Shown: one piece after another, positions 2,261 to 30,827 of the stretch
How positions within the stretch are numbered: the first letter of the stretch is position 1
Layout of the letters: the number at the start of each line of letters is the position of its first letter
Source: an uncultured Planctomycetaceae bacterium
GTDB lineage: Bacteria > Planctomycetota > PLA2
DNA length: 64,000 nt
Assembly (NCBI GenBank): GCA_964570285.1
Contig: CAZMXP010000028.1
Span: 74 to 64,073 of the forward strand
Direction of reading: 5' to 3'
Notes under the pieces: model-generated
Seen by the model: the letters and a program-made list of their open reading frames with translations, nothing else
What the model was told of the DNA's origin: nothing
Databases searched by the model: none
Program-made: the position numbers and the translations under genes

Positions 2261-2266
2261 GGGGCC

Positions 2267-3927: not shown

Positions 3928-4235
3928 ACACCGAAGAGACCAAGCAGAAGATCGTCGAGGCGATCCGCACGGTGTTCGACCCGGAGATCCCGGTCAACAT
4001 CTACGACATGGGCATGATCTACCAGATCGATGTGGAGGGGTCCGGGGAGGCGTACGTCAAGATGACGCTGACGAGCCCGATGTGCCCCGTCGCCGGCACG
4101 CTGCCCGGCGAGGTCGAGATGAAGGTCGCCTCGGTCGAGGGGGTCACCGCCGCGAAGGTGGAACTCGTCTGGGACCCGCCGTGGGGCATGGACAAGATGT
4201 CGGAGGCGGCGCGCCTTCAGCTCGGAATGATGTGA
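3924..4235 (+). CDS. sufT: DUF59 (MIP18/SufT-like) Fe-S assembly protein
   Basis: 103-aa protein with a conserved DUF59 Cys (TSPMCP). Last gene of the suf cluster, overlapping sufU. Confidence 0.7.
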   Translation: MNTEETKQKIVEAIRTVFDPEIPVNIYDMGMIYQIDVEGSGEAYVKMTLTSPMCPVAGTLPGEVEMKVASVEGVTAAKVELVWDPPWGMDKMSEAARLQLGMM

Positions 4236-10794: not shown

Positions 10795-12327
10795 CTAGAA
10801 GACCCCCCGCGTGAGCCCCTCGGCGAGCCCCCAGAGGCCGCCGAAGGCGAGGCCGAGCACGAGCACCGGCACCGTCACGGCGAGCGTCAGGCCCCGGTCC
10901 ACGCCGGCGAAGGCCACCGTGACGGGCGGGACGCGCTCGGCGTCGAAGAGGTACATCACCTTCAGGAACCGCGCGTAGTAGTAGAGCGAGACGACGCCGT
11001 TCAGCAGGCCGATGACGCCCCCCCAGAAGAAGAGCATCGAGCCGTGGGCGCCGCTGTAGTTGAAGACCTCGCGGAAGAGGAAGAGCTTGCCGACGAACCC
11101 TCCGGTGGGCGGCAGGCCCGTGAGGCCGATCAGGCAGGTGGCCATGCAGACGCCGAGCAGCGGGGCGCGGAATCCGAGCCCCTCGAACGCGTCGATGTCG
11201 GTGCGGCCGGTCGCGCGCTCGACGATGCCGACGATCGTGAAGGCGCCGAGCGTCATGAAGAGGTAGACGACCATGTAGAAGACGACCGCCGCGGCGCCGC
11301 TGTGCGTCGTCACGCAGACGCCGAGCAGCAGGTAGCCCGCGTGGGCGATCGCGCTGTAGGCGAGAAGCCGCTTGCTGTTGTGCTGCCGCAGCGCGGCGAC
11401 GTTGCCGACCGTCATGGTGACGAGCGCCATCAGCAGCAGCACGGTGCGCACCGTCTCGTTGTTGGCCGCGAGCGCGTCGGTAAGACCCTGGCCGCCGCCG
11501 GTGACGGCGCCGACGACGCGGAGCACCGCCGCGAACCCCGCCCCCTTCGCCGCGACGGCGAGGAACGCGGCGACCGAGGTCGGCGCGCCCTGGTAGACGT
11601 CGGGGCACCAGAACTGGAAGGGGGCCGCCGCGATCTTGTAGGCGAGCCCCGCGAAGACCATCACGATCGCGACGAGGAACGCGGGCGACGCGCTCGCCGC
11701 GCCCGCGACCGACTGCAGCGAGCGGAACGACTGCCCGTCGGGCGTGGAGATCGTGGCGGTGCCGGCGAACCCGTAGAGCAGGGTCATGCCGTAGAGCATC
11801 AGACCCGACGAGATCGCCCCGAAGATCACGTACTTCAGCGCGGCCTCGCTGCCCTGCACGTCCGACTTGCGGAAGCCGGCGAGCAGGTACCCCGCGATCG
11901 AGAGCAGCTCGATCGACACGAAGAGCATCGCGAGGTCGTTGCTCGCGGCGGTGAAGCAGGCGCCGAGGACCGCACCGAGCAGCACGACGAAGAACTCCGT
12001 GCGGGAGCGCCGGACGTCGCCGCGGATCGCCGCGACGGCGGCGATCATCCCGGTGCCGAGCACGAGCACGCGGAACGCCTTCGCGAGGCCGTCGGCGCGC
12101 AGGAGCTTCGTCGTGATCGCGCCCTCCGACCAGGGCTGGCCGAGCGCGACGAAGAAGGCGAGCACGAGGGAACCCAGCGCCAGCGCGCTCGCCACGCCCT
12201 CGCGCCGCCCGCGGCCCGCCAGCAGGTCGGCGAGCAGGATCAGCGGCACCGCGGCGCAGAGCAGCGTCTCCGGCAGGAAGTGCCGGAGGAGGCCGGAGAG
12301 GTCGGGGATGAGCTGGCTCGCGAGCAT
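10795..12327 (-). CDS. nuoN: NADH-quinone oxidoreductase subunit N
   Basis: 510-aa polytopic antiporter-like subunit, last of the nuoL, nuoM, nuoN run. Confidence 0.9.
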   Translation of the reverse strand: MLASQLIPDLSGLLRHFLPETLLCAAVPLILLADLLAGRGRREGVASALALGSLVLAFFVALGQPWSEGAITTKLLRADGLAKAFRVLVLGTGMIAAVAAIRGDVRRSRTEFFVVLLGAVLGACFTAASNDLAMLFVSIELLSIAGYLLAGFRKSDVQGSEAALKYVIFGAISSGLMLYGMTLLYGFAGTATISTPDGQSFRSLQSVAGAASASPAFLVAIVMVFAGLAYKIAAAPFQFWCPDVYQGAPTSVAAFLAVAAKGAGFAAVLRVVGAVTGGGQGLTDALAANNETVRTVLLLMALVTMTVGNVAALRQHNSKRLLAYSAIAHAGYLLLGVCVTTHSGAAAVVFYMVVYLFMTLGAFTIVGIVERATGRTDIDAFEGLGFRAPLLGVCMATCLIGLTGLPPTGGFVGKLFLFREVFNYSGAHGSMLFFWGGVIGLLNGVVSLYYYARFLKVMYLFDAERVPPVTVAFAGVDRGLTLAVTVPVLVLGLAFGGLWGLAEGLTRGVF

Positions 12328-12333
12328 CCGTCC

Positions 12334-13875
<1,542 letters not shown>

Positions 13876-13884
13876 GCGTCCTGC

Positions 13885-15882
13885 CTACATCCAGAGGAGC
13901 ACGAGGAGGACGAGGGCCGTGGCCCCGACCGCCATCGCGACATAGTTTCGGATCTTTCCGGTCTGCGCGGACGCCACGACGGCGCCCGCGCCCTGCGCCG
14001 AGTCGGCGGTGAGATGCACGAGGCCGTCCACGACCACCTTGTCGGTGTCGCCGCTGACGTCCCCCAGCAGCAGCCCGCCTCGCCCGGAGACGTTCACGAG
14101 GCCGTCCACGATGTTCGCGTCCGCCCACGCGCACGCGGCGGCGGCGCGGTGCGAGGGCGCCACCCATCCGTCGAGGTACATCTCGTCCATGTAGAACTTC
14201 CCCGCGGAGAGATCGTGGAGGGGCCCGGGGAGGAGGACGGACTTCTCGTCGCGGCGGCCGGAGGCGAAGAGCGCGAGGCCGACGCCGATGCCGACGCCGC
14301 CGAGGCACATCGCGAGCGCGGTGAACCAGCCCGGATGGGCGTGGTGCTCCAGGTGGGCGCCGGGCGCGACGTAGGCGTGCGCGTTCGAGGCCGTCGCGGG
14401 GAAGTCGCGGTAGTGCGCGGGCGTGCGGAAGAACTTCTCCGCGAACCCCGTGCTCTGGAAGGTGATGCCGAAGGAGAGCACCGCGAGGATCACGAGAGGC
14501 ACGGTCATCGCCGCCGGCGACTCGTGGGCGTGGTCGTACTTGTGCTCGTTCTTGGGCTTGCCGCAGAAGCAGAGCCAGACGAGGCGCGTCATGTAGAAGG
14601 CCGTCAGGAAGGCCGCGAACACGCCGGTCCAGAAGAGCACGGAATGGCCGCCCTCGAGCGCGGAGAGCAGGATCGCGTCCTTGCTGTAGAAGCCGCTCAT
14701 CAGCGGCAGGCCCGCGAGCGCGAGCGTCGCGATCGCGAACGTGACGAAGGTGACCGGCATCTTCTTCCGCAGCCCGCCCATGTCCTTCAGGTCCTGGGCG
14801 TGGTGCATCGCGTGGATCACCGAGCCCGACCCGAGGAAGAGGCACGCCTTGAAGAAGGCGTGCGTCGTCAGGTGGAACATCGCCGCCCAGGGGGCCCCGC
14901 ACCCCACCCCCATCATCATGAACCCGAGCTGGCTGATCGTGCTGTAGGCCAGCACCTTCTTGATGTCGGTCTGCGTGACCGCGATCAGCGCCGCGAGCAG
15001 CGCCGTGACGCCGCCGGTCCACGCGATGAAGCCGAGCGCGTCCGGCGTGAAGATCGGGAACATGCGCGCGGCGAGGTAGACGCCCGCCGCGACCATCGTC
15101 GCCGCGTGGATCAGCGCGCTCACCGGCGTGGGGCCCGCCATCGCGTCCGGCAGCCAGACCTGCAGCGGGAACTGCGCCGACTTGCCGACGGCGCCGAAGA
15201 AGAGGCCGATGCCCGCCCACGTGAGCAGCGAGCCGCCCAGGCTGCCCGCCTTGACCGCGGCGAAGATGCCCTCGAACGAGAGCGTGCCGCAGCTCGCGTA
15301 GAGCACGAGGATGCCGAGCAGCATGCCGACGTCGCCGACGCGCGTCGTGATGAAGGCCTTCTTGGCCGCCTCCGCGTTGGCGAGGTCCTCGCTCCAGAAG
15401 CCGATCAGCTTGTAGGAGCAGAGGCCGACGAGCTCCCATCCGATGAAGAGCAGCAGCAGGTTGTCCGCGAGCGTCAGGATCAGCATCGCGACCGCGAAGA
15501 AGGAGAGCCAGAAGAAGAAGCGGTCGTACTTCTTGTCGCCCTTCATGTAGGCGGTCGAGAAGATGAAGACGAGCGCGGCGACGAGCGTGACGACGCAGAG
15601 CAGCGCCGCGGTGAGGCCGTCGACGAGAAGGCCGATCTCGAACTTCGCGCCGCCGGCCAGCTCGAACCAGGTCCACGTGGAGCGGAAGTAGCCGCCCGCG
15701 GGGAGGCCCGCCCAGGCCCCGAGCGTCACGAGGCTGAGCAGCAGCGAGACGAGGATCCCGCCGACGACGACGAGGTCGCCCTTGCGCGGCAGCGACTTGC
15801 CGAAGAAGTTCTGCACGAGCCCGGCGAGCGCGGGGGCGAGGATGATCCAGGGAACGTAGCCGGGAGTGGGTTGCACCGTCAT
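13885..15882 (-). CDS. nuoL: NADH-quinone oxidoreductase subunit L
   Basis: 665 aa; WLPDAMAGPTPVSALIHAATMV motif and a long C-terminal helix region. Confidence 0.9.
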   Translation of the reverse strand: MTVQPTPGYVPWIILAPALAGLVQNFFGKSLPRKGDLVVVGGILVSLLLSLVTLGAWAGLPAGGYFRSTWTWFELAGGAKFEIGLLVDGLTAALLCVVTLVAALVFIFSTAYMKGDKKYDRFFFWLSFFAVAMLILTLADNLLLLFIGWELVGLCSYKLIGFWSEDLANAEAAKKAFITTRVGDVGMLLGILVLYASCGTLSFEGIFAAVKAGSLGGSLLTWAGIGLFFGAVGKSAQFPLQVWLPDAMAGPTPVSALIHAATMVAAGVYLAARMFPIFTPDALGFIAWTGGVTALLAALIAVTQTDIKKVLAYSTISQLGFMMMGVGCGAPWAAMFHLTTHAFFKACLFLGSGSVIHAMHHAQDLKDMGGLRKKMPVTFVTFAIATLALAGLPLMSGFYSKDAILLSALEGGHSVLFWTGVFAAFLTAFYMTRLVWLCFCGKPKNEHKYDHAHESPAAMTVPLVILAVLSFGITFQSTGFAEKFFRTPAHYRDFPATASNAHAYVAPGAHLEHHAHPGWFTALAMCLGGVGIGVGLALFASGRRDEKSVLLPGPLHDLSAGKFYMDEMYLDGWVAPSHRAAAACAWADANIVDGLVNVSGRGGLLLGDVSGDTDKVVVDGLVHLTADSAQGAGAVVASAQTGKIRNYVAMAVGATALVLLVLLWM

Positions 15883-16178
15883 CCCCTGAGCGAGTTGGCG
15901 CGGTCGACGTCCACGTCCCGCCGCTTGTCGAAGAGTTGGAGGATGATCGCGAGGCCGACGGCGGCTTCCGCCGCGGCCAGCACGATCACGAAGATCGCGA
16001 AGACCTGCGCATCGAGGCCTCCCCCGAATCGGCTGAACCCGACGAGGTTGACGTTTGCCGCGTTCAGCATCAGCTCGACGCCGATCAGGAGTCCGATCGC
16101 GTGGCGCCGCGTGACGACGGTGAGCACGCCGGTCGCGAGCAGCGCCGCCCCGAGGCCGAGGAAGTGGTAGAGGTTCAC
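15879..16178 (-). CDS. nuoK: NADH-quinone oxidoreductase subunit K
   Basis: 99-aa three-TM subunit. ATGA overlap with nuoL. Confidence 0.9.
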   Translation of the reverse strand: MNLYHFLGLGAALLATGVLTVVTRRHAIGLLIGVELMLNAANVNLVGFSRFGGGLDAQVFAIFVIVLAAAEAAVGLAIILQLFDKRRDVDVDRANSLRG

Positions 16179-16675
16179 GCCTCCGCCCTCCGCACGAGGT
16201 AGGCGGCGCCGACCAGCGCGACGAGCAGCACGATCGACGCGAACTCGAACGCGAGGATGTAGTCGCCGAGCAGCAGCGTCCCGATCTCCTCGGTCGAGTC
16301 CGCCGCGGCGGGCGTCTCGCCCGGGTGGAACTGCGAGGTCGCGGCGATCGCCTTCATGAGCCCGAGGAAGAGGATCGCGGCGATCGCGAGGCCCGCCTTG
16401 CGGTTCTTCACCTCGGCGGCACCCAGGGTGAGCGCGGTCCGGCCGGTGAGCAGCACGCCGAACGCGATCAGCACGAGCACGCCGCCGACGTAGACGACGA
16501 TCTGCGTGATCGCGAGGAAGGTCGCCCCGGCCATCGCGTAGATCGCCGCCACGCCGACGAACGAGAGCATCAGGCTGAAGACGGCGTGGACGATGCGGGG
16601 CAGGAGCGCCGCCATGAGGCCCCCGGCGACCGCCATGCCCGCGAAGATCCAGAAGAGCAGCGTCTCGATCCCCAT
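16175..16675 (-). CDS. nuoJ: NADH-quinone oxidoreductase subunit J
   Basis: 166-aa membrane subunit (MGIETLLFWIFAGMAVAGG...) taken from ORF 16175..16978 at an internal Met. Confidence 0.85.
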   Translation of the reverse strand: MGIETLLFWIFAGMAVAGGLMAALLPRIVHAVFSLMLSFVGVAAIYAMAGATFLAITQIVVYVGGVLVLIAFGVLLTGRTALTLGAAEVKNRKAGLAIAAILFLGLMKAIAATSQFHPGETPAAADSTEEIGTLLLGDYILAFEFASIVLLVALVGAAYLVRRAEA

Positions 16676-18247: not shown

Positions 18248-19429
18248 TCACCGGTCCACCTCGCCGAGCGTGATGTCGATCGAGCCGATCAGCGCGATCA
18301 GGTCCCCGATCAGGAGGCCGCGCGCCGTCTCCGTGATCACCGCGATGTTGTAGAACGACGGCCCCCGCATGCGCACGCGATAGGGGTTCTTGCCGCCGTC
18401 CGACACGAAGTAGCAGGAGATCTCGCCGCGCGGCGCCTCGGAGGCGACATAGGCCTCGCCCGGCGGCGCCTTCCACCCGCGCGAGACCTTCGCGTTGCTG
18501 ACCTCGCCCGCGGGCAGGCGCTCGACCCCCTGCCGGATGATCTTGATGCTCTCCTCGAGCTCGAGCAGGCGCTGCCGGTGGCGGTTCCACGCGTCGCCGA
18601 CGACGCCGTGCTCGAACGGCCCGACCGGAACCTTGAACTCGAAGTCCTCGTAGGACGAGTAGGGCAGGTCGCGCCGCGTGTCGCGCGGCACGCCGGCGGC
18701 GCGCAGCACCGGTCCGGTGACGCCGTAGCGCAGGCAGATCTCGCGGTCGAGCAGCGCGACCCCGCAGGTGCGGTTCAGGAAGATCTGGTTGTAGGTGAGC
18801 AGGTTGTTGTACTCGTCCATGTGCGCATCGACGCGGTCGCACCAGGCGATCACGCGCTTGCGCCAGTCATCCGAGACGTCGCGCGTGACGCCGCCGTACC
18901 GGATGTAGTGGTAGAGCAGCCGCCCGCCGGTCACCTCGTTCAGCAGCGTGATCCCCTCCTCGCGCTCGCGGAACATGTAGAGGAAGGGGGTGAAGGCCCC
19001 CATGTCGAGGCCGAACTGCCCCGCGCAGAAGAGGTGGCTGATCGCGCGGTTGATCTCGCAGAGGATCACGCGCAGGTACTGCGCGCGCTTCGGCACCTCG
19101 ATCTGGCCCGCCTTCTCGACCGAGAGCACGAGCCCCATCTCCATGTTGAGCGCGCCGAGGTAGTCCATCCGGTCGACGTAGGGCAGCCCCTGCACGTACG
19201 TGAGGTTCTCGAGGATCTTCTCGCAGCAGCGGTGCAGGTTGCCGATCAGCGGCTGGCAGGCCAGCACGACCTCGCCGTCGGTGCGCAGCACGACGCGCAG
19301 CACGCCGTGGGTGCTCGGGTGCTGCGGCCCCATGTTGAAGACCAGCTCGTCGGTCTGGATGTCGCGCGGCAGGAGCGGCGCGCTGCGCTCCCCCTCGTCG
19401 AGCTTGACGCCCTGGATCAGCGTGCTCAT
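18248..19429 (-). CDS. nuoD: NADH-quinone oxidoreductase subunit D
   Basis: 393 aa ([13 protein letters not shown]...) with a NuoD / NiFe-hydrogenase large-subunit-like fold. It is followed directly by nuoH, with no nuoE, F or G in between. Confidence 0.9.
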   Translation of the reverse strand: MSTLIQGVKLDEGERSAPLLPRDIQTDELVFNMGPQHPSTHGVLRVVLRTDGEVVLACQPLIGNLHRCCEKILENLTYVQGLPYVDRMDYLGALNMEMGLVLSVEKAGQIEVPKRAQYLRVILCEINRAISHLFCAGQFGLDMGAFTPFLYMFREREEGITLLNEVTGGRLLYHYIRYGGVTRDVSDDWRKRVIAWCDRVDAHMDEYNNLLTYNQIFLNRTCGVALLDREICLRYGVTGPVLRAAGVPRDTRRDLPYSSYEDFEFKVPVGPFEHGVVGDAWNRHRQRLLELEESIKIIRQGVERLPAGEVSNAKVSRGWKAPPGEAYVASEAPRGEISCYFVSDGGKNPYRVRMRGPSFYNIAVITETARGLLIGDLIALIGSIDITLGEVDR

Positions 19430-19887
19430 TGCGTGCAGTCCACCCCGTGGTACTCGGTCGGGAACACGTAGTCCTTCCGCAGGGGGTGCCCCTCCCAGTC
19501 CTCGGGAAGCAGGATGCGGTAGAGGTGCGGATGGCCGGCGAAGCGGATGCCGAGCAGATCCCACGTCTCGCGCTCGCCCCAGTTGGCGCTGGCCCACTCG
19601 TGCGCGAGCGTCGGCACCTCGGGATTCTCCCGCGGCACCGAGACCTTCACGCAGACAAAACCCGGCTCCTCCGAGATGCGCGCGAAGTGGTAGACGACCT
19701 CCATCCGGTCGGCGAAGTCCACCCCGCTGATCTGGTGCAGCATCTCGACGCCGCACTTCTCCCTCAGCACGCGCGACGCCGCGACGATCGCCTCCGCCTT
19801 CACGCGCACGAACGGGTGCGTCCCCTCGTCGACGACCTCCGTCACGGAGTCGCCGAGCGCTTCGCGCAGGATCTCCGCCTCCCTCAT
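19426..19887 (-). CDS. nuoC: NADH-quinone oxidoreductase subunit C
   Basis: 153 aa; motifs EVVYHF and WREREVYDLFGI-like. ATGA overlap with nuoD. Confidence 0.85.
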
Positions 19888-20654
19888 GTCGCCTTCTCCG
19901 CGGGAGGTTCATTCTGAGGGGGCTCGGGGGCCTTCTTGGCGGCGGCGGCCTTCGCCGCCGCAGCCTCGGCCTTGGCCTTCTTCTCGGCCTCCTCGGCGGC
20001 GCGCTTCGGATCGTCGTGGTGCAGCGCCTTCTCGGTCTTCCAAGGCTCCGCGGGCGAGAGGCCGTCGAGGACCGCCTGCCGCGAGCCCTTCTCCGGCGGT
20101 GTGAAGCCCGGGTCCTTGTTGTTGAGCCGCTTCCCGCGCGACATCACCAGTTCCTGCAGCCGCATCACGGCCTCGAGGAGCGCCTCGGGCCGCGGCGGGC
20201 AGCCGGGCAGGTAGATGTCCACGGGCACGATCTTGTCCACGCCCTTGACGACGTGGTAGCCGAACTTGAAGTAGGGCCCCCCGCCGACGGTGCAGGCACC
20301 CATCGCGATGACCCACTTCGGGTTCGACATCTGGTCCCAGAGGCGGCGCACCCGCGGCGCCATCTTGTGCGTCACCGTGCCGGCCACGATCATCACGTCC
20401 GCCTGCCGCGGCGTCGCGCGGAAGACCTCGGCGCCGAAGCGAGAGATGTCGAACTTGACCATCGCCGTCGAGATCATCTCGATCGCGCAGCAGGCGAGCC
20501 CAAACCCGAGGGGCCAGAGGGCCGACTTCCTGCCCCAGTCGATGAGCCACTCCGCCTTCGTCAGCAGGATGGTCTGCTCGAGTTCGGGGTCGAACCGCTC
20601 CGGGGGCGGCATGTAGGCCGGCCGACCCGGTCGCGCCGCCTTGGCTTCGCTCAC
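19884..20654 (-). CDS. nuoB: NADH-quinone oxidoreductase subunit B, with a Lys/Ala-rich C-terminal extension
   Basis: [13 protein letters not shown] and PGCPPRPE N2-cluster motifs. A GTG start overlaps the nuoA stop (GTGA), with an alternative ATG at 20612. The C-terminal 60 aa are a low-complexity K/A/E/P tail. Confidence 0.85.
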
Positions 20655-21160
20655 GCGCCCTCCTTGCCGCTTCCCACGGGTTCCGGCTCCTGGACGACCC
20701 CGCCCTCGAGCATCGCGTCGGTGAGCGCGGGCCCCGGCTTCGTGCTCGTCCAATCGAGGTCGCGCCGCTGCCAGACGTAGGCGAGGCCGATGCCGAGCAC
20801 GACGAGGAAGAGGAGCGCCTCGACGAAGGCCGCCCCCCCGGCCCCCCCCGCGATGAACTTGTCGTACGCCGCCGCCCACGGGAAGAGGAGCGCCACCTCG
20901 ATGTCGAAGATCAGGAAGATGAGGCTCAGCGTGTAGAAGCGGATGTCGAAGCGGATCCACGCGTCGCCCATCGTCGGCTCGCCGCACTCGTAGGTCTCGC
21001 CCTTCGCCCCCTGGTCGGGCTTGTGCGGGCGCCGGAGGAGCAGCTTGCCGATGACAAAGAGGTTGAGCCAAACGAAGATGGCTCCGAAAACGGCAAAGAC
21101 AAGTACGTTTCCGAAGCCCTCGAGGTGATCGGAGGCCGACACGAGCATGGGATGGTCCAC
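20651..21160 (-). CDS. nuoA: NADH-quinone oxidoreductase subunit A
   Basis: Three-TM small subunit with the conserved YECG motif. First gene of the operon. Confidence 0.8.
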
Positions 21161-21282
21161 CGCGACTTGCGCGGCGGATTATGCCACCCACGCCGCGGGG
21201 GGGCCAGATATCCGCAAGTGTCGCGCCTACAACCGCTTGAGCGATTTCCGGCGCGGCCGACAAGAGGTATACTGGGGTACCG

Positions 21283-21816
21283 ATGAAGAGCAGCGCAACG
21301 ATCGACCTCCACGTCCCCGAGCAGCAGACCGAGGGGGGCTTTTTCGTCTCCCGCCTCGACGCGCTGATCAACTGGAGCCGCAAGAACTCCCTCTGGCCGC
21401 TGCCGATGGGGCTCTCCTGCTGCGCGATCGAGTTCATGGCCGTCGCCTGCTCGCGGTACGACCTTGCCCGCTTCGGAGCCGAGGTCGCGCGGTTCAGCCC
21501 GCGCCAGGCCGACGTGATGGTCGTCGCGGGGACGCTCACCTACAAGATGGCGGACATCGTCCGCCGCGTCTACGAGCAGATGGCCGAGCCGCGCTGGGTC
21601 ATCGCGATGGGCGCCTGTGCGAGCAGCGGCGGCATGTTCCGCTCCTACCCGGTCGTGCAGGGCATCGACGAGATCGTGCCCGTGGACCTCTACATCAGCG
21701 GCTGCCCGCCGCGGCCGGAGGCCGTCCTCAAGGGGCTCATGACGCTGCAGGACAAGATCGGCCGCGAGAAGCCGGGGCAGGCCGTCATCGACCAGGTCAA
21801 GGAAGTACTCGCGTAG
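21283..21816 (+). CDS. NuoB paralog (NADH-quinone oxidoreductase subunit B / NiFe-hydrogenase small-subunit-like), stand-alone
   Basis: 177 aa with all four N2-cluster Cys motifs ([21 protein letters not shown]). Divergently transcribed from nuoA; no partner nuo genes are adjacent. Confidence 0.8.
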
Positions 21817-21864
21817 GGCGGCCCACCGAGGGAGCCGCCCCGCGGCCGCGGGAGGGGGGATCGC

Positions 21865-22422
21865 ATGCGTGCATGGCTCGCCGGTGCGTTGTTGTTTGGA
21901 TTCGCGGGGGCAGCGGGGGCCGAGGGAGGCCCGGACGCGCCGTCCACCGAGGACCTGCCTTTCGAGTCGCTGGACGCCGATGGCGACGGGGCCTTCCGCC
22001 CCGCGGACATCGTCAAGCTGAGGACGAAGCCCTACGTGGATGCGATCGACAAGGAGGACTTCGAGGTCTTGCAGGCCTGGGCGCGCAGCTCCGCGGCGGT
22101 GAGCGTGCCCAAGGGGTGGTTCAAGGACCACTTCGAGCACGCGGCGATCTGGACCTTTCTCTCCCCGCTCGACCTCCCCGTCGGCTGCTTCCACGGCGCG
22201 ATGGACGTGAACACGCCGATCGGGGCGGTGCGGAAGCTCGAGGCGCAGGCGAAAGAGGCCGGCAAGTCCAGGATGGAGTTCCACTACTTCGACGACCTCG
22301 ACCACTCGCTGAACATCGGCGAGTACTTCGTCCACGGCCGGATGCCCGCGGGCCATCAGGCGATCTTCGACTTCCTCCGCCGTCAGACCGCGCCGAGGCC
22401 GGGCGCCGCAGTCGATCGCTGA
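21865..22422 (+). CDS. Secreted hypothetical protein (signal peptide, EF-hand-like DADGDG, alpha/beta-hydrolase C-terminal-like segment)
   Basis: N-terminal signal [19 protein letters not shown]. Motifs DADGDGAF and HGAMDVNTP...DHSL. Confidence 0.45.
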
Positions 22423-23599: not shown

Positions 23600-23932
23600 C
23601 TACACCGAGAACGACTCCCCGCAGCCGCAGGTCCCCTTCGCGTTCGGATTCACGAACTTGAATCCGGCGCCGGTCAGCGCGTCGGCGTAGTCGAGTTCGC
23701 TGCCGTTCAGGAAGAAGAGCGACTTCTTGTCGATGTAGACGCGGAAGCCGTCCCGCTCGAAGGTCTCGTCCCCCTCCCCGGGCCCCTCCCCGATCTCCAT
23801 CTTGTACATGAGGCCGGAGCAGCCGCCGCCGGCGACCTTCACGCGGAGCCCGGGGGCCATGAGCCCCGCCTGCGCCGCGACGAGATCCTTGCCGCGCTTG
23901 GCGGCGCGTTCGCTGATCGTGAGACTCGGCAT
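23600..23932 (-). CDS. A-type Fe-S carrier (IscA/ErpA/HesB family)
   Basis: 110 aa with a conserved Cys in GGGCSG and a C-terminal CGCGESF. Confidence 0.8.
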   Translation of the reverse strand: MPSLTISERAAKRGKDLVAAQAGLMAPGLRVKVAGGGCSGLMYKMEIGEGPGEGDETFERDGFRVYIDKKSLFFLNGSELDYADALTGAGFKFVNPNAKGTCGCGESFSV

Positions 23933-23939
23933 AAAGTCA

Positions 23940-25103
23940 ATGATAGCATCGGTTTCCAGCTTGGCGATCTACCTCGACCACCACGCGACGACGCCGCTCG
24001 ACCCGCGCGTGCTCGACGCGATGATGCCCTACCTGCAAGGGAAGTTCGGCAACGCGAGCAGCCGCAGCCACAGGCACGGCTGGGAGGCGGAAGAGGGTGT
24101 GGAGGGGGCGCGGGGGCAGGTGGCGCGGCTGCTCGGGGCCGATCCGCGCGAGATCATCTTCACGAGCGGCGCGACGGAATCGAACAACCTCGCGATGCTC
24201 GGCCTCGCGGCGTTGGGGCGCTCCCGCGGCGACCGCATCCTCATCAGTCCGATCGAGCACCCCTCGGTAACCGACGCGGCGGAGCATCTCGCGACGCGCG
24301 GCTTCCGCGTCGATCGCCTGCCCGTCGACCGGCTCGGCCGCGTCCAACCGTTCGACGCCGGCGAGGGAACCATCCTCGTCTCGGTGATGCTCGCGAACAA
24401 CGAGGTCGGCACGATCCAGCCGGTCGCGGACCTGGTCGCCGCGGCGCGCGGCGCCTTCTTCCACACCGACGCCACGCAGGGCGTCGGCAAGATCGAGTGG
24501 AGCGTGAAGGGGTCCGGCGTCCACACCGCCTCGCTGACCGGGCACAAGATGGGCGGGCCGAAGGGGTGCGGCGCCCTCTACGTCCGGAAGGACTTGCAGC
24601 TGCCGCGACTGTTGCATGGCGGAGGTCAGGAGCGGGGCATGCGGCCGGGCACGCTGAACGTCCCGGGCATCGTCGGCCTCGGCGCCGCGTGCGGACTCTG
24701 CCTGCGCGAGCGAGAGGAGGAGAGCGCGCGGGTCGCGCGGCTTCGCGACCTGCTCCGCGAGAGGCTCATGGCGACGATCCCGGGGCTGCGGCGCAACGGC
24801 GATCCGGAGCGCTGCCTGCCGGGTAATCTCCACCTGACGTTCGACGGCGTCGACAACCAGTCGCTGATCGCGGCGCTGCCCGAGGTCGCCTTCTCGACCG
24901 GCTCCGCCTGCGCCTCCGGCGCGCTGGAGCCCTCCCATGTGCTGAAGGCGATGGGCGTGCCGCCCGCCTCCGCGCGCTCGTCGGTCCGGTTCGGCCTCGG
25001 GCGCTCGACGACGCAGGAGGAGATCGAGAGGGTCGCCGCGCTGGTGGGCGCCGCGGTCCGTCGCCTCCGGGAGGGAACCGCCCCCCGAGGACGGGCTTCC
25101 TAG
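23940..25103 (+). CDS. Cysteine desulfurase, NifS/IscS family (class V aminotransferase). Start uncertain; an alternative TTG lies at 23961.
   Basis: IYLDHHATTP, SGATESNNLA, SLTGHKMGGPKG (PLP Lys) and STGSACASG (active-site Cys). Confidence 0.8.
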   Translation: MIASVSSLAIYLDHHATTPLDPRVLDAMMPYLQGKFGNASSRSHRHGWEAEEGVEGARGQVARLLGADPREIIFTSGATESNNLAMLGLAALGRSRGDRILISPIEHPSVTDAAEHLATRGFRVDRLPVDRLGRVQPFDAGEGTILVSVMLANNEVGTIQPVADLVAAARGAFFHTDATQGVGKIEWSVKGSGVHTASLTGHKMGGPKGCGALYVRKDLQLPRLLHGGGQERGMRPGTLNVPGIVGLGAACGLCLREREEESARVARLRDLLRERLMATIPGLRRNGDPERCLPGNLHLTFDGVDNQSLIAALPEVAFSTGSACASGALEPSHVLKAMGVPPASARSSVRFGLGRSTTQEEIERVAALVGAAVRRLREGTAPRGRAS

Positions 25104-25173
25104 TCCTTCGGAATCCCGCGTGCCTCTGCCTCCGCGCGGCGGTGCTCGAGGCCCCGCGGATCGACCGCCGCGC

Positions 25174-25212
25174 GGACTGGAGCCGGCACCCGTGCGGGCG
25201 GCCGGCTCCAGT
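25174..25212. terminator. Bidirectional intrinsic-terminator-like hairpin between convergent genes
   Basis: GGACTGGAGCCGGC - 11 nt - GCCGGCTCCAGTC, a 14-bp perfect stem. It sits between the 3' ends of the desulfurase (+) and the PEP-CTERM gene (-). Confidence 0.6.
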
Positions 25213-25233
25213 CTCGCTCGCGGGCCCGCAAGC

Positions 25234-25791
25234 TCAGGCCGCCCGGCGCCGGCGGCGCCAGTAGCAGTAGCCGCCGAGCATCGTGAGGCAGAGGGCGAGC
25301 GTGCCGGGTTCGGGGGAGGGGGCGGGCGTGAGGCGGAAGTAGGCGTCACCGCCCCGGCCCTGGCCCGAGATCACGTAGATCGAGATCTGCTGCGTGCCGT
25401 AGCCGAGCAGGAAGCTCGCGCGACCGTAGCGACCGTCGAGCAGCGTCTGGTCCGGGTCGCTCGTGTCCACGGCAGGGATGCCGCCCGCTCCCGGCGCGCT
25501 GGTCACGCCGAGGGAGACGCCCCAGTTGAACACCTCGAACTGGTCCCCGGGTTCGAAGGCGTCGACGATCGTCAGGACGTAGCGACCGGCGAAGGTCCAT
25601 GCGGGATTGCCGAGGGCGACGGAGTTCCCGCCGCCGCTGGGGATCGCGAAGGTCCCCGCCGTCGCCTCGGTGCCGTTGGCACCAAAGCTGAATTCCTTCC
25701 AAGGACCGTCCTCCGGGACGATCGGATCGGCGAGCGCGAACTGGGTTGACACCAGCAGCGCCAAGGTGATTCCAAGCAGTCGCATTGTCAC
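25234..25791 (-). CDS. PEP-CTERM sorting-domain secreted protein (exosortase substrate). The probable ATG start is at 25785.
   Basis: Signal peptide, then a C-terminal PEP motif (PSPEPGT), a hydrophobic helix and RRRRR. Confidence 0.7.
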   Translation of the reverse strand: MTMRLLGITLALLVSTQFALADPIVPEDGPWKEFSFGANGTEATAGTFAIPSGGGNSVALGNPAWTFAGRYVLTIVDAFEPGDQFEVFNWGVSLGVTSAPGAGGIPAVDTSDPDQTLLDGRYGRASFLLGYGTQQISIYVISGQGRGGDAYFRLTPAPSPEPGTLALCLTMLGGYCYWRRRRRAA

Positions 25792-26121
25792 GTTGTGTCT
25801 CCTGTTGAGGTTGGCTTGCCAGGAGGCCGAGACTAAGTCAGGGTTTTTGGAGAGGCAACCGCGACCTGCCCCGGCGGATGCAAGTAGTCTCGAAACCGGA
25901 CTCAGACTGATACGAGCGTCCCGGAATGAGACGGTCGCAGCCGCGCACGGCGCGGACCCCGCGTCGGCGGAGAGCTCGCGGGCCTGCCGCCCGGCGTCGG
26001 CCTAGACCTGCTTCACCTCCGACGCCCGGCATGTCCGCCCACGCGTGCCAACCACGCCCGGGCACCGACAGCGAGGATCCTTCGAGTCGAGGGTCTGCCC
26101 GACGATTCGTCGGCCCCACCC

Positions 26122-26385
26122 CTAGAACTCGTTGCGCGGCCGCGCCTGGTCGATGTAGGCCTGCCGCGCGGCGGCGTACTCGGCGGCGGTCAGCGCCTCG
26201 ACGGGGAAGCCGTCGGGATCCTCCCAGATCCTCTTCAGGAAGGGGATGCACCAGCCGCAGCCGGTACCCGCGCCGAGGCACTGGCTCATCTGCGAGGCGA
26301 GCCTGGGACGTTCGCGACGCGCGTAGTGGACGAGCTTGCGCAGCGGGACGCGGTAGCAGTAGCAGATCAGCTCGTCGGGCTTCAC
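26122..26385 (-). CDS. BFD-like [2Fe-2S]-binding domain protein (GTG start)
   Basis: ICYCYRV...CLGAGTGCGWC matches the CxC...Cx2C BFD signature. Only the C-terminal 87 aa of ORF 26122..26655 look coding. Confidence 0.55.
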   Translation of the reverse strand: MKPDELICYCYRVPLRKLVHYARRERPRLASQMSQCLGAGTGCGWCIPFLKRIWEDPDGFPVEALTAAEYAAARQAYIDQARPRNEF

Positions 26386-26435
26386 GGGGGCAGGGGGCGC
26401 CCGCACGCGGCGGACGCCCCCGGGACTCCGGAGGG

Positions 26436-27341
26436 CTAGGAGCCCGCCTTCAGCTCGGCGAGCCGGGTCTCCTTCGACTTGAAGAAGCCCGCCGCCTGGG
26501 GATTGCCCCCGTAGACCGCCTTCGCGCCCTCGAGGGCCTGCTCGTAGAGCGTGGCGTCGTTGCGGAAGTCGGCATACTCCATGATCTGGAGCCAGAAGCT
26601 GCCGCGCTTCTGCTCGTCGGCGGGGATCTGCCCCTGCGCGAGCATGCCCGCGCACTTCTCGCCGACGGCGGTCTTCTGGATCTCGTCGAACCTGGCGTTC
26701 GCGAGAACTCCGCCGAGCGCCTTCTCCTGGGCCGGCGACAGCTTGCCGAGCGCGGACAGCTCCCCGTGCAGTTCCGCCACGGTCAGCCTGCCCATCTCGG
26801 CCCGCAGGATCGCGTAGTCGATCTTGGCCGTCTTGTCGCCGGACTCCGCCTTCTTGCGCAGATCGACGAACTCCATCGCCTTCCCGGCGGTCTTCGCGAA
26901 GCCTTCGGCCGAACGGTCGCCGCCATGCGTCGCGAGCACGCCGCCGTCCGCATCGAGCACGCAGACGTGCGGGAACCCGCGCCCGCCGACCTTGCCGAGC
27001 AGGTCGTCGTTGGCGCGCCCGGGGATCTGCGTCGTGACGTGCAGGAACATCACGTAGTCCTTCGAGAACTCCGCGAACTCAGGGGTGAGGAGGGCACCGC
27101 CCTCCAACGCGTTGCAGGGGGGTCATGGCGCATAGGAGCGGGTGAAGTAGGCGAAGATCACCTTCCCCGTCTCCTTCGCCTTCGCCTTCGCGGCGTCGAA
27201 GTCGGTCGTCCACGCCGCGTTGCCGACAAAGTCCTTCTTGAGCTTCTCGTCGAGCTTGTCCTCGAGATCCCCCGCCCGGGCCGCGGCCGCGAGCAGAAGC
27301 ACCGAGAGACCGGCCCCGAGCAGGGGCATCGTCCGTTTCAT
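26436..27341 (-). CDS. Secreted thioredoxin-fold protein with an in-frame TGA (putative selenocysteine, motif YAP-U-PPC), paralog 1. The track splits it into two ORFs.
   Basis: Signal peptide MKRTMPLLGAGLSVLLLAAAARA. Frame reads ...VIFAYFTRSYAP-TGA-PPCNALEGGALLTPEF... and is continuous with ORF 26436..27107. The amino acids on both sides of the TGA are conserved in paralog 2. Confidence 0.6.
27089..27105 (-). promoter_or_regulatory. Candidate bacterial SECIS hairpin, +18..+34 nt after the TGA of paralog 1
   Basis: mRNA GGAGGGC-GGU-GCCCUCC, a 7-bp stem immediately downstream of UGA. Confidence 0.5.
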
Positions 27342-28246
27342 TGGTCCTTCTCTCCTTTCTCGTCCTTGGCCGGAAGAGCGGCCAGTTGTTTCTCGAACGC
27401 CGCGGCCATCTCCGAGAGGCCGGGGGTCTTCTTCAGATCCTCGATCGCCGCCGCGAGCGTCCCGCGGTCGCCCTCCTTCACCGCCTTCTGCCCCAGTACC
27501 TGCCAGAAGAAGTACTTGAGCTCCGGCGTCGAGGGCACGCTCCCCTCGTCGTGCATCGCGGCGAGGTCGCGCAGCAGCACCGCGGCCTTCTCCGGCGTCT
27601 GCGCCCTGCCGAAGCTCTCCTGCAGCGAGGCGACGTCGCTGTCGACCATCAGCTGTCCGTACCACCGGCGCTGCGATTCGCTGAGGGTCTCCTCGTCGAT
27701 CTCAAGCTCGTCAAACGGCACCTGCCCGAGCTCGCAGCCGAGCAGCGCGGCATCGATCCTCGCCGCGTCGTCGGTGGAGGCCGCGAGCGCCTGCCAGCGC
27801 TTCACCGCCTCCACGGTCGCCGCGAGCCCCTGCGGGTCGAAGGGCCAGAGCGGCTTGCCGAGCACCTTGCCCTCGGCATCCATGATCGCGAGATAGGGCG
27901 TCCCCCGCCCCCCCTTCTCGATCAGCAGATCCTCGTGCTTGCGCTCGCTGATCCGCGTCGTGATGTGCAGGAAGGGCACGACGCCCTTCGCGAACTCGAC
28001 AAAGGCCTCGGAGCTGAGGGGCCCGCCCTCAACGCGCTCGCAGGGGGGTCATGGCGCGTACGAGCGCGTGAAGTAGGCGAAGACGAGCTTCTTCTCCTCG
28101 CCCGCGCGCGCAAGCGCCTTGTCGAAGTCCAACTCCCACGCGACCTTCTTCACGAAGGGCTTCTGCAGTTCCTTCGCGAGCTTCTCCTCGAGGGACTGCG
28201 CGGCCGCGAGGGCGGCGAGCGCGAGCAGCGCGATGAGCGGTCTCAT
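27338..28246 (-). CDS. Secreted thioredoxin-fold protein with an in-frame TGA (putative selenocysteine, UxxC), paralog 2
   Basis: Signal peptide MRPLIALLALAALAAA. Frame reads ...LVFAYFTRSYAP-TGA-PPCERVEGGPLSSEAFVEFAKGVVPFLHITT... and is in frame with ORF 27338..27979. Its stop overlaps the paralog 1 start. Confidence 0.6.
28015..28031 (-). promoter_or_regulatory. Candidate bacterial SECIS hairpin, +18..+34 nt after the TGA of paralog 2
   Basis: mRNA UGAGGG-CGGGC-CCCUCA. Same offset as in paralog 1, with compensatory base changes in the stem. Confidence 0.5.
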
Positions 28247-28257
28247 GGGCGTGGATT

Positions 28258-28596
28258 CTAGCTCTTGGCGAAGGTTACCGAGACCTTCGCGACGAGAATC
28301 CCGCCGGCGAAGACCTCGCCCTCCGCCGCACAGAGGCGGCGACCCTGCCGGAGCAGGCGCCCCTGCGCCTGGAGAAGTCCGGGGGGTGCGGGGGCGAGAA
28401 ACTGCGCGGAGAGGGAGACCGGCACGACCGCCTCCCCCACCGCCCGGGCCGCCGCGACCTCTCCCAGGGTCGTCAGCACCGCCATGTGGACGATGCCCGG
28501 GGCGGCCTCGTGGGCGGGTGCCAGCGCCTCCATCTCGATCGCGCCGGTCTCGCCGACGGCGCGCAACCCCAGCCCGCGGTTGAAGTCCTTCTCCAT
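28258..28596 (-). CDS. PaaI/4HBT-family hotdog thioesterase
   Basis: 112-aa C-terminal portion of ORF 28258..29034 with a hotdog-fold pattern (GIVHMAVLTTLGEVAAARA...). Confidence 0.65.
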   Translation of the reverse strand: MEKDFNRGLGLRAVGETGAIEMEALAPAHEAAPGIVHMAVLTTLGEVAAARAVGEAVVPVSLSAQFLAPAPPGLLQAQGRLLRQGRRLCAAEGEVFAGGILVAKVSVTFAKS

Positions 28597-28597
28597 G

Positions 28598-29683
28598 TCA
28601 GCCTCCAGGCGTGAGCAGGTAGTCCCTCGAGATCTCCCGGTACCACGCGGCGATGACCTCGAAGGTGGCGGCCACCTCCGCCTCCGACGCTCGCCCCTCG
28701 CGCACGGCGGCGAGCGACTCCCGGAGCGCATCGCGCACGCGCTCGCTGCCCCGCGGCCCGTCGGCGATCGACGCCGGCAGCGCGAGGCTCCGGTCGCCCT
28801 CCACCTGCGACGAGATCGACAGCACCGCGCGGTGCACCTCCGCGGCGTAGAGTTCCACGTCGCGCCGGTCGAAACTGCGCAGCACCGACGGCACCTGGAA
28901 CGCGGCGAACGCGACGACGACGAGCGCGAGGAGCGAGCGCGAAGCCCAGATCCACGCCCGGTCCACGGCCCCCCCCCACGCGCGCACCCCCGCCGCCCCC
29001 CAGCCGAGCAGGAGCCCGACACCGAAGCCGACACCGTGCGCGACGTTGTCGACTCCCGGGCGCAGGTAGCCGTAGCCGAGGATGAAGAGCGCCCAGAAGA
29101 GCATGCGGCGGCTCAGGTCGTTGTCCCATCGGCCGCTGCGGCGATACCCCCAGGCGGCGAGCGCCGTGATCAGGCCGCAGATGGCGCCCGACGCCCCCGC
29201 GCCCCCGTTGCCGGCGAGGTGGCTCCCGAGCGCGGCGAGAATCCCGGCGGCAAGGTAGATCGTCACGGTCCGGTGGCGGCCGAAGGTCGTCGCGGCGAGC
29301 GGCAGCAGCACGTAGAGCGAGACGCAGTTGAAGAGCAGGTGCATCAGGTCGAGGTGGAGGAAGACCGCCGTCACGAGCCGCCAGTACTGCCCTGCGGTGC
29401 CGATCAGCCACGGATGCGTCGCGCCCCAGAAGCTGACGGCGAGGTGCGAGGGGGCGAGCGCCTCCTGTTCCGGCTCCCCCCGGGCCGGGTCGAGCATGAC
29501 CATCAGCAGGTAGAGGATCGCGTGGAAGGCGATCACCCCGAGGCCGAGGCGGGAGGTCGCCTCCGCATCGGCGGCGGGGCTCGGCGCCGCGAGGTGGCGC
29601 GCATCGGTGCCGCAATAGGGGCACTCCCGCGCCGAGGGCTCGAGAAGTGCCCTGCACTTCGGGCAGACATGGACCGCGGCCAA
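28598..29683 (-). CDS. Rhomboid-family intramembrane serine protease with an N-terminal zinc ribbon (probable TTG start)
   Basis: CPKCRALLEPSARECPYCG ribbon; six or more TM helices; GASGAI catalytic Ser motif; NVAHGVGFGVG catalytic His motif. Confidence 0.75.
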   Translation of the reverse strand: MAAVHVCPKCRALLEPSARECPYCGTDARHLAAPSPAADAEATSRLGLGVIAFHAILYLLMVMLDPARGEPEQEALAPSHLAVSFWGATHPWLIGTAGQYWRLVTAVFLHLDLMHLLFNCVSLYVLLPLAATTFGRHRTVTIYLAAGILAALGSHLAGNGGAGASGAICGLITALAAWGYRRSGRWDNDLSRRMLFWALFILGYGYLRPGVDNVAHGVGFGVGLLLGWGAAGVRAWGGAVDRAWIWASRSLLALVVVAFAAFQVPSVLRSFDRRDVELYAAEVHRAVLSISSQVEGDRSLALPASIADGPRGSERVRDALRESLAAVREGRASEAEVAATFEVIAAWYREISRDYLLTPGG

Positions 29684-29740
29684 GGTCCCTACCCTATACT
29701 CGCGGGCGAATTGCTGCGGACTCCGCTTGCGCTGCTGCTG

Positions 29741-30526
29741 ATGCTGCTGCCGCTCCTCGGCGGCCAGCAGGAGTTCTGGGAGAGGCTCCCGCCGCCCAAG
29801 CAGGGCGAGTGGCTCGATCTCTTCCCGGAAAGGGGCGAGACCTTCGAGGAGTACCGGGCCGCGGGCCCGACGCGCCCCACGCCGGCGCGCCGGACCCTCT
29901 ATCTTCTCCCCGCCCTGACCCGCCCTCCCGCCGACCGCGAGATCCTCGCGGCGGTGGCGCGCCAGATGTCGGCCCACTTCGGCCGGGAGACGCGCCTGCT
30001 GCCCCCGAGCCCCCTTCCCGTCGCCGCCTATGACCGCGAGGCGCGCCAGTACTCGGTGCCGCTTCTCGTCCCCGCACTGCTGAAACTCCTTCCCGACGAC
30101 GGCCTCTTCCTGCTCGCCCTCACCGACCGGGACCTCAAGCTGCCGAAGATGACGCATGTCTTCGGGTGGGGCTCCTTCCGGCTGCGGGTGGGGGTGATGA
30201 GCCTCGCCCGCATCCCCGACGACGCGGCGCGGCACCGGCGTCGCGTGCTCGGCCTCGCAACCCACGAGGCGGGCCACCTGCTCTCGATGGCGCACTGCAC
30301 GGCCTACCGCTGCCTGATGAACGGCGCCCGGACGGTCGAGGAGGGGGACCGCCGGCCGATGCTGCTCTGCCCGGTCTGCTCGGAAAAGCTCTGCTGGAAC
30401 CTCGGGTGGGAGGCCAAGGCCCACTATCGCTCGGTGGCGGGCTCGTTCGAGGAGGTGGGGCTCGGGGAGGAGGGGGAGCTTGCTCGTCGTGCTTGCGACA
30501 TAACCGCAAGCAGCACAACAGGTTAA
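29741..30526 (+). CDS. Archaemetzincin-like zinc metallopeptidase (peptidase M54). Start uncertain (TTG at 29711 or ATG at 29741).
   Basis: HEAGHLLSMAHCTAYRCLMNG ... CPVCSEKLC matches the HExxHxxGx3Cx4C...CxxC archaemetzincin signature. Confidence 0.7.
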   Translation: MLLPLLGGQQEFWERLPPPKQGEWLDLFPERGETFEEYRAAGPTRPTPARRTLYLLPALTRPPADREILAAVARQMSAHFGRETRLLPPSPLPVAAYDREARQYSVPLLVPALLKLLPDDGLFLLALTDRDLKLPKMTHVFGWGSFRLRVGVMSLARIPDDAARHRRRVLGLATHEAGHLLSMAHCTAYRCLMNGARTVEEGDRRPMLLCPVCSEKLCWNLGWEAKAHYRSVAGSFEEVGLGEEGELARRACDITASSTTG

Positions 30527-30532
30527 GTGCGT

Positions 30533-30561
30533 TTGATTCGAGCGCCCGGTTTTGCTAGAAT
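30533..30561 (+). promoter_or_regulatory. Near-consensus sigma70-type promoter (TTGATT - 17 nt - TAGAAT)
   Basis: -35 TTGATT at 30533..30538, a 17-nt spacer, -10 TAGAAT at 30556..30561; a GGAGG RBS and an ATG at 30579 follow. Confidence 0.55.
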
Positions 30562-30578
30562 CAGGGGCTCGGAGGCTG

Positions 30579-30827
30579 ATGGACGAGCTCAACTACCGCC
30601 GCATCCTGAACTGTCCCAAGCGCCGCTGCGAGGCGTGCGGGGCGACGACCTACCTCGATCCCGGCGAGGTCTATCGCTGCGTGGTCTGCGACCACGACCG
30701 GTTCGAGACCTGCCTCGACTGCGGCCACCTCGTGGGCTGGTGCGAGTGCGAGCCGGTCGCCATCGTCCCCACGCCCCGGACGCGGGCCAAGCGCGGCCGG
30801 CCCAGCGTCGCGAAGTCCAAGAGCTAG
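30579..30827 (+). CDS. Small Cys-rich zinc-ribbon protein (82 aa)
   Basis: CPKRRCEACG...CVVCDHDRFETCLDCGHLVGWCEC, ten Cys in 82 aa. Good promoter and RBS. Confidence 0.6.
   Translation: MDELNYRRILNCPKRRCEACGATTYLDPGEVYRCVVCDHDRFETCLDCGHLVGWCECEPVAIVPTPRTRAKRGRPSVAKSKS

Follow-up and report, generated by a model that had tools for sequence, protein, structure and literature searches.

We describe here two tandem genes, P1 and P2, in a stretch of 64,000 nucleotides (nt) of contig CAZMXP010000028.1 from an uncultured Planctomycetaceae bacterium, hereafter called the window, and two RNA hairpins that lie inside these genes, each downstream of an in-frame UGA. Both hairpins are very probably working bacterial selenocysteine insertion sequence (bSECIS) elements, predicted to sit in the coding region of genes for thioredoxin (Trx)-fold UxxC selenoproteins, in which U stands for selenocysteine (Sec). 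By itself the window is suggestive and cannot decide between an RNA signal and an accident of coding; it is the comparison with relatives of the two genes that is decisive.

P1 (26436..27341, minus strand) comprises 301 codons plus a stop and P2 (27338..28246, minus strand) 302 codons plus a stop, and translation gives for each a single open frame whose sole interruption is one in-frame TGA. The two proteins share 36% identity (E = 7e-50) and have in common the motif FTRSYAP-[TGA]-PPC. Pfam Thioredoxin_7 (PF13899) is matched by P1 with 39.5 bits, above the gathering cut-off of 27, and by P2 with 24.4 bits, just under it. In P1 the UGA is codon 73 (27125..27123, minus strand), the predicted Sec codon and first residue of a UPPC redox motif, and in P2 it is codon 66 (28051..28049, minus strand), again the predicted Sec codon of a UPPC motif. 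A spacer of 17 nt separates the UGA from the hairpin in both genes, namely CCCCCCUGCAACGCGUU in P1 and CCCCCCUGCGAGCGCGU in P2. The P1 hairpin, GGAGGGC-GGU-GCCCUCC (27105..27089, minus strand), has 7 base pairs (bp) and a 3-nt loop and encodes (L)EGGAL(L). The core of the P2 hairpin, UGAGGG-CGGGC-CCCUCA (28031..28015, minus strand), has 6 bp closed by the loop CGGGC and encodes (V)EGGPLS; a U.G and a G-C pair lengthen this stem to 8 bp at 28033..28013, with one G-U among them. For both genes the sequences, the 17-nt offset and the hairpin positions given in the initial annotation agree exactly with what is read on the minus strand. Its further claim, that the stems of the two paralogs differ by compensatory changes, stands for the outermost pair, which is G-C in P1 and U-A in P2, but this pair is the only one; the C-G pair innermost in P1 has no counterpart in P2 (C.C), and the loop of P2 is bigger as a result.

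A protein search returned 15 relatives, four of them full-length (303-328 amino acids, aa) and 11 of them C-terminal fragments (204-247 aa). The full-length homologs (P0006, P0007, P0009 and P0014) are Cys forms that run colinear with P1 along its entire length; they have CPPC or CVPC exactly opposite the TGA-PPC of the window, and the TGA aligns with the first Cys. All 11 fragments start at or after the hairpin-encoded peptide, and the DNA upstream of every one of them contains a 59-70-aa open reading frame (ORF) ending at an in-frame TGA. The in-frame TGA is present in every ortholog fetched, and the P2-type orthologs at loci L002 and L006 retain it as well; both paralogs are present in L002/L003 and in L006/L007. 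A selenoprotein is recognized by an in-frame TGA opposite a conserved Cys of its homologs, with coding conserved on both sides (PMC13188914), and such a Sec/Cys pair is what we find here, the TGA lying opposite the Cys of CxxC and coding being conserved on either side of it.

A profile search covering 1.84 billion protein representatives gives an impression of the extent of the family. At E <= 0.001 the family profile is matched by 1,070 clusters (50% identity), and at E <= 1e-30 by 449. About 120 of the best 150 representatives start at or just after the hairpin-encoded peptide and are thus presumably Sec forms whose genes were cut in gene calling. Public annotation gives both window genes and roughly 120 of these 150 as two pieces or as a 'hypothetical protein' truncated at the N-terminus. 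In at least 17 of the best 150 the N-terminal domain is intact and a Cys occupies the Sec site, in 16 of them as C-x-x-C and in one as CGPS, and a further protein, P0153, has an intact N-terminal motif with Ser at the Sec position (SLPC). P1 itself is present in the public record only as P0001, a protein of 204 aa starting at an internal Met (MFLHVTT...).

The conservation of the hairpin was followed in relatives found by a scan of metagenome contigs with TAYTTYACNCGNTCNTAY-N6-TGA-N6-TGY, which encodes YFTRSY-xx-U-xx-C. This motif stops at the cysteine codon of UxxC, upstream of the hairpin, and the scan is therefore blind to the hairpin. It gave at least 120 stretches, and together with other loci there are 126 distinct TGA-containing sequences among the matches listed; the relatives that carry a name are metagenome-assembled genomes (MAGs) of Planctomycetota. 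In 121 of these 126 TGA forms the best perfect hairpin begins 14-18 nt after the UGA. Within a search range of fixed extent, 120 of the 126 have at least 6 bp and 109 at least 7 bp. The 17-nt hairpin of P1 recurs unchanged in L004, whose protein shares just 51% identity. RNAalifold, given no structure, recovers the same helix of 7-8 bp and nothing besides.

The helix occurs in two registers. In register A (70 sequences) its centre is the middle base of codon +9 and that codon, GGN, forms the loop; in register B (40 sequences) the centre lies one base later and the loop is G-U-N. Most sequences outside these registers have either a loop of 4 nt or a single mismatch within the stem. Register A has 33 distinct pairs of arms, which encode 40 different heptapeptides, and register B has 21, which encode 16. 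The two arms vary together. The covariation score of register A is 0.369 compared with 0.154 after shuffling, a value reached by none of 500 shuffles, and controls in which the helix was slid give at most 0.172; for register B the score is 0.274 against 0.180, again reached in 0/500 shuffles. Columns 21-37, for example, are G-C in 30 sequences, U-A in 24-25 and C-G in 5, and columns 26-32 are G-C in 62-63 and A-U in 5. In register B there are two pairs in which both partners change synonymously, GAG/CTC to GAA/CTT (Fisher p = 4e-4) and NNC/NCG to NNT/NCA (Fisher p = 4e-7), so selection at the protein level cannot explain them. A neighbour-joining tree derived solely from the flanks is noisy (~216 nt, with a median flank p-distance of 0.41); on it, each pair switched state at least 3-19 times with pairing kept, and the covariation is thus not one inherited change.

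How much of this structure the encoded peptide alone would produce was estimated by resampling synonymous codons according to a codon usage taken from the flanks of the same genes and matched in G+C content at third codon positions. Family-wide, the best stem averages 7.5 bp where 4.5 bp are expected, and the mean minimum free energy (MFE) is -13.0 kcal/mol compared with an expected -9.5 kcal/mol; individually, 53% of the sequences reach p <= 0.05. In register B, codon +9 ends in T in 39/39 sequences (GGT, CGT or AGT), the T-ending share of those codon families in the flanks being 8%, 14% and 43%, and in register A it is GGT in 30% of sequences versus 7% in the flanks. With a T at the end of the loop codon, register B has the G[G|U] loop that the bSECIS model describes, and the bias shows that the loop, too, is under selection.

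The Cys forms provide a natural control. Six such genes were recovered (L010-L013, L134 and L135), and all six have a stem of just 3-5 bp at the hairpin position. Stems that score above 5, equivalent to ~6 bp or more, are present at this offset in 119/126 Sec forms as opposed to 0/6 Cys forms (Fisher p = 2.6e-7). L010 encodes the LEGGALL of P1 as CTG GAA GGC GGG GCG CTG CTG and has no hairpin. Likewise, L134 encodes the same VEDGVL as the Sec-form gene at L006, using GTG/CTG instead of GTC/CTC, and the hairpin is absent. The initial annotation had taken the hairpins for a conserved RNA structure rather than a consequence of coding alone, and the covariation, the helix recovered by RNAalifold and the stems beyond coding expectation all bear this out; it had stated that orthologs lacking the hairpin, or stem positions accounted for entirely by conserved amino acids, would speak against it, and we found neither.

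Several points weigh against reading the hairpins as RNA signals and have to be considered here. In the window, whose G+C content is about 70%, the energies from single-sequence folding do not surpass those of dinucleotide shuffles (z = +0.28 and +0.78 and, when segments of both 61 nt and 96 nt are counted, +0.28, +0.78, -0.24 and -0.54), values that are uninformative at such a composition and were not used. A stem score of at least 7 at the same offset is found for 2.4% of the 1010 TGA trinucleotides in the window, and for 1.0% of them when a G in the first two loop positions is also required. The preferred codons for E-G-G-A-L largely reproduce both window hairpins, and when the codons of each gene's own peptide are resampled the stems still average 5.3-5.5 bp (p = 0.03 for P1 and p = 0.11 for P2). 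The E and the second G of the hairpin peptide are invariant in the protein alignment, Cys forms included, so that sequence conservation is partly at the protein level. As for the comparative data, related sequences are non-independent samples, the Cys controls number only six, and membership of a register was set by the best hairpin, which means that the percentages of paired cells (79.6% versus 68.2% shuffled for register A, from an ungapped alignment, and 86.3% for register B) are somewhat inflated. Finally, a gene for tRNA-Sec, selA, selB or selD was not found in the 64-kilobase (kb) window (ARAGORN for the tRNA; Pfam on ~30 ORFs for the proteins), a result that is uninformative for a window of that size.

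Some of these points would be accounted for if the hairpin were a by-product of (L/V)-E-G-G-(A/P)-L written in GC-rich codons (GAG GGC GGN GCC CTC), that is, an accidental palindrome with no RNA function. We nevertheless regard this explanation as very unlikely. L010 and L134 encode such peptides with other synonymous codons and form no hairpin; conversely, peptides as different as ESGSLS, EDGVL, ERGAL and EHGVL all form the hairpin at the same place, in two registers. Nor would it account for an excess of 3 bp over the coding expectation across the family, for covarying pairs that are synonymous on both sides, or for rare T-ending codons fixed in the loop.

The published bSECIS consensus has four criteria (PMC13188914, Fig. 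2 legend): an apical loop of 3-9 nt closing an upper stem of 4-16 bp, a G in one or both of the first two loop positions, mostly as G[G|U], a distance of 16-37 nt between UGA and apical loop, and an MFE of at most -7.5 kcal/mol. Both window hairpins lie within all four. The P1 hairpin has a 3-nt loop (GGU) on 7 bp, a G where it is expected, a spacing of 24 nt and, as a bare hairpin, an MFE of -12.4 kcal/mol; the P2 hairpin has a 5-nt loop (CGGGC) on 6-8 bp, the expected G, a spacing of 23 nt and an MFE of -11.3 kcal/mol. Among the relatives, loop and stem sizes are in range in 126/126, the loop G is present in 123/126 (as G[G|U] in 117/126), and the spacing is 22-25 nt in 120/126 and 16-37 nt in 123/126; with a detector that accepts perfect stems only, 111/126 pass on every count. 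The position, described in the initial annotation as that of bacterial SECIS elements, is thus confirmed for both hairpins, which follow directly on an in-frame UGA at a spacing within the published model. Rfam gave no match at gathering thresholds, and around the genes only hits at chance level (E >= 5).

The SECIS of Escherichia coli fdhF/fdnG is an experimentally defined SelB-binding hairpin. It is also cited as the best-characterised bSECIS (PMC13188914) and invites a direct comparison. Like it, the P1 and P2 hairpins are stem-loops just 3' of the UGA within the ORF, are translated after use, and have a small apical loop with G followed by U or G. However, there is no sequence similarity between them, the P1 and P2 hairpins are without the bulged U in the upper stem, and they begin ~17 nt after the UGA, whereas the minimal E. 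coli element starts at ~11 nt. The family also has no conserved lower stem involving the UGA, according to RNAalifold on the relatives, unlike E. coli.

Planctomycetes are documented to decode Sec, and several of them reportedly have the complete machinery for it (PMC4807772). With ARAGORN, the window yielded no tRNA of any kind, and none of the fetched loci yielded a tRNA-Sec. SelB binding, Sec insertion, export and an enzymatic role are inferred from what is established about the Sec pathway of bacteria, and together they suggest the following course of events. When the UGA (codon 73 in P1, codon 66 in P2) reaches the ribosomal A site, the stem-loop, starting ~17 nt downstream, would still be folded just outside the mRNA entry channel. 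From there it would recruit SelB carrying Sec-tRNA(Sec) to the UGA ~17 nt upstream, and SelB would deliver the Sec-tRNA(Sec) in competition with release factor 2. The hairpin would then be melted by the ribosome and translated as (L/V)-E-G-G-(A/P)-L. The finished protein would be an exported thiol:disulfide oxidoreductase, with Sec as the residue that attacks from its U-P-P-C centre.

Alternatively, the hairpin might drive read-through of a kind that involves neither SelB nor Sec, for instance with near-cognate Trp or Cys, or it might serve some other purpose such as a pause for export. In other systems, a structure downstream of a stop codon can stimulate its read-through, and SelB and tRNA-Sec were, after all, not seen in the 64-kb window. 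All the same, we consider such a role highly improbable. The UGA occupies the site of the nucleophilic Cys of a CxxC oxidoreductase, which is the classic site of Sec/Cys exchange (PMC13188914), and both the geometry and the G[G|U] loop fit the bSECIS model. A pause for export is further argued against by the finding that the hairpin accompanies UGA and not UGY, because the Cys forms are exported too.

A bSECIS reading also agrees with how TGA is used in the rest of the window. TGA terminates P2 as well as the genes for Complex1_49kDa and a SufS-like Aminotran_5 protein, and in the latter two it does so exactly where the Pfam domain ends, Complex1_49kDa being matched to its last residue. Since the window otherwise uses TGA as a normal stop, the recoding must be local, and a local signal is needed. 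An alternative genetic code with UGA as a sense codon throughout was considered and rejected, given that TGA ends genes at the ends of Pfam domains and ends P2. When the window was searched for additional in-frame stops with coding signal on either side, all that came up were normal junctions between genes, and there was no other selenoprotein candidate. The stop of P2 overlaps the start of P1 (ATGA, 27338-27341, minus strand), an arrangement which suggests that translation of P2 and P1 may be coupled. On one and the same mRNA, then, the same trinucleotide is predicted to specify Sec at codon 66 of P2 and to act as a genuine stop ~700 nt later. That the in-frame TGAs are real stops too, in a split or decaying gene or between two small genes, with the hairpin irrelevant or a relic, is extremely unlikely: public gene calls do split the genes into ORFs of 65-72 aa followed by ORFs of 204-232 aa, and TGA ends many genes of the window normally, but the in-frame TGA stands at the catalytic Cys site in 126 distinct, strongly diverged sequences (flank p-distance ~0.41), the coding signal is intact on either side of it, the C-terminal fragments would be left without redox motif, N-terminal beta-strand and signal peptide, and pseudogenes would not retain one specific stop at one specific codon.

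Read through the UGA as Sec, P1 consists of an N-terminus that resembles a signal peptide, a Thioredoxin_7 domain with FTRSYAP-U-PPC, and a helical C-terminal domain of ~170 residues; the N-terminus of P2 resembles a signal peptide as well, in both cases as judged by eye only. An AlphaFold2 model of the Cys homolog P0006, with a mean predicted local distance difference test score of 91, places a Trx fold at residues ~40-135 and an all-helical domain behind it. The product is probably an exported protein with a U-P-P-C centre, a periplasmic thiol:disulfide oxidoreductase of the DsbD-gamma/DsbH type. In Foldseek searches, the Trx domain of P0006 is nearest to DsbH, DsbD-gamma and AGR2-type domains, the best matches being DsbH and DsbD gamma (PDB 2ju5, 1uc7 and 2fwg; template modelling (TM) score to the target 0.61-0.66). 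P1 and P2 are like these proteins in a weak similarity to the NCBIfam DsbH model (E = 2e-6), in their predicted export and in having a centre of the CxxC type; they differ in that Sec replaces the first Cys and a helical domain is added. A score of 26-28 bits with the DsbH model, where the cut-off is 190, indicates that they are not DsbH orthologs. For the whole chain of P0006, the top Foldseek match is YbbN/CnoX (PDB 3qou and 3qdn, E = 7e-6), which likewise has a Trx fold followed by an all-helical domain, tetratricopeptide-like in CnoX. However, with a TM score of just 0.27 and 13-16% identity the resemblance is one of architecture only. CnoX is, moreover, cytoplasmic and without a CxxC centre.

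Trx-fold UxxC selenoproteins with a SECIS in the coding region are the commonest class of bacterial selenoproteins (PMC2398784, PMC13188914). The P1/P2 family is like them in having the UGA at the first Cys of CxxC, a bSECIS downstream in the coding region, Cys homologs, and the Pfam signatures PF13899/PF13098, which are seen in P1/P2 and their relatives; it differs from them by the added helical domain. It differs in its composition, too: in the Global Ocean Sampling data 'Trx-like 2' counts 22 Sec and 2,098 Cys forms, whereas the P1/P2 family appears mostly Sec, at ~120 of the best 150. Identity of the family with 'Trx-like 2', 'Trx-like 3' or 'thiol:disulfide interchange protein' was considered and is not established. 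None of the curated NCBIfam cut-offs is reached, the scores being 18 bits for NF041199, 19 bits for NF041383 and 28 bits for DsbH (NF043050) where 300, 275 and 190 are called for. NF041199 (Trx7/PDZ) and NF041383 (VPGUxxT) are curated families of Thioredoxin_7-like selenoproteins and in this respect akin to P1/P2, which match them weakly; in contrast to P1/P2, their motifs are CxxU and VPGU, and P1/P2 are without a PDZ domain.

Thus, the bSECIS mechanism and this kind of protein are already known, and it is the P1/P2 family that is without a match among curated selenoprotein models. It is possible, if somewhat less likely than not, that the two window genes belong to a large and not separately catalogued selenoprotein family (1,070 clusters, with ~80% of the best 150 apparently being Sec forms), possibly defined by an exported Thioredoxin_7 domain joined to a helical domain, by a SECIS within an invariant E-x-G peptide that uses two interconvertible registers (loop GGN or GUN), and by pairing that constrains the amino acids encoded opposite each other (G/A, D/V, S/S, R/A and H/V).

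Reading the UGA as Sec would restore a complete exported redox enzyme, correct a widespread mis-annotation, and mark the source organism as a user of selenium. The family also amounts to a clean natural experiment in dual coding, with more than 100 diverged sequences in the same frame, two registers, and Cys controls that lose the structure. Such data could serve to benchmark bSECIS predictors and to show how an RNA signal shapes the peptide it encodes. A family consisting mostly of Sec forms is uncommon among Trx-like proteins and hints at a real catalytic advantage of selenium in these periplasmic oxidoreductases.

A few members of the family deserve separate mention. L012, from a Planctomycetota MAG, is a natural Cys/Sec tandem: a Cys-form paralog (3001-3987, CPPC, hairpin weak or absent) lies directly upstream of a Sec-form paralog (4122-5090) with a TGA at 4347 and a perfect 9-bp hairpin. 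Twelve of the representatives (P0016, P0017, P0023, P0025, P0026, P0049, P0059, P0074, P0076, P0083, P0087 and P0097) are 312-509 aa long and match the profile in two stretches. Either these are true fusions, or the gene call may have continued from the C-terminal part of one tandem paralog into the N-terminal part of its neighbour. Nine loci (L016, L032, L034, L050, L053, L079, L085, L128 and L129) form a subgroup that reads U-xPC-x-[YF]-MEGGPLLSDWW(V/K)xxS from the Sec codon on and then, ~60 nt past the TGA, departs from the window proteins; its N-terminal Trx motif and hairpin are the same, but the C-terminal domain that follows them may be of another kind. A profile built from a 7-sequence alignment and run against genome contigs gave a single locus, L001, from an uncultured Planctomycetota MAG. 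At ~3440-3560 of L001 a masked run of N falls inside the selenoprotein gene, of which the usable N-terminal two thirds include the TGA and the hairpin.

The genes surrounding P1 and P2 show a conserved order in several relatives, namely Peptidase_M54, Rhomboid, a thioesterase-like gene, P2, P1, a Fer2_BFD-like gene and Aminotran_5. This neighbourhood spans ~23739-30600 of the window and was also seen at L002/L003, at L006/L007 and on the contig of P0008. The Peptidase_M54 protein is archaemetzincin-like and the Rhomboid protein has a zinc ribbon; a HEAT-repeat protein is present in some relatives. The small thioesterase-like gene of the window (28261-28597) has no Pfam hit, and its counterpart in relatives matches Pfam 4HBT. 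The Fer2_BFD-like small protein is encoded at 26125-26655 and the NifS-like Aminotran_5 protein, a class-V aminotransferase, at 23739-25100 (plus strand, 235 bits). With the SufS/CsdB-like gene at 2261-3508 (plus strand, 505 bits), the window has two genes for class-V aminotransferases, a class that includes cysteine desulfurases and selenocysteine lyases. Finally, a cluster for NADH:quinone oxidoreductase at 10795-16353 (minus strand) and 18248-22422, which comprises three back-to-back Proton_antipo_M subunits in the same frame together with the 49-kDa, chain 3 and 20-kDa subunits, has the appearance of an ordinary nuo operon divided between the two strands.

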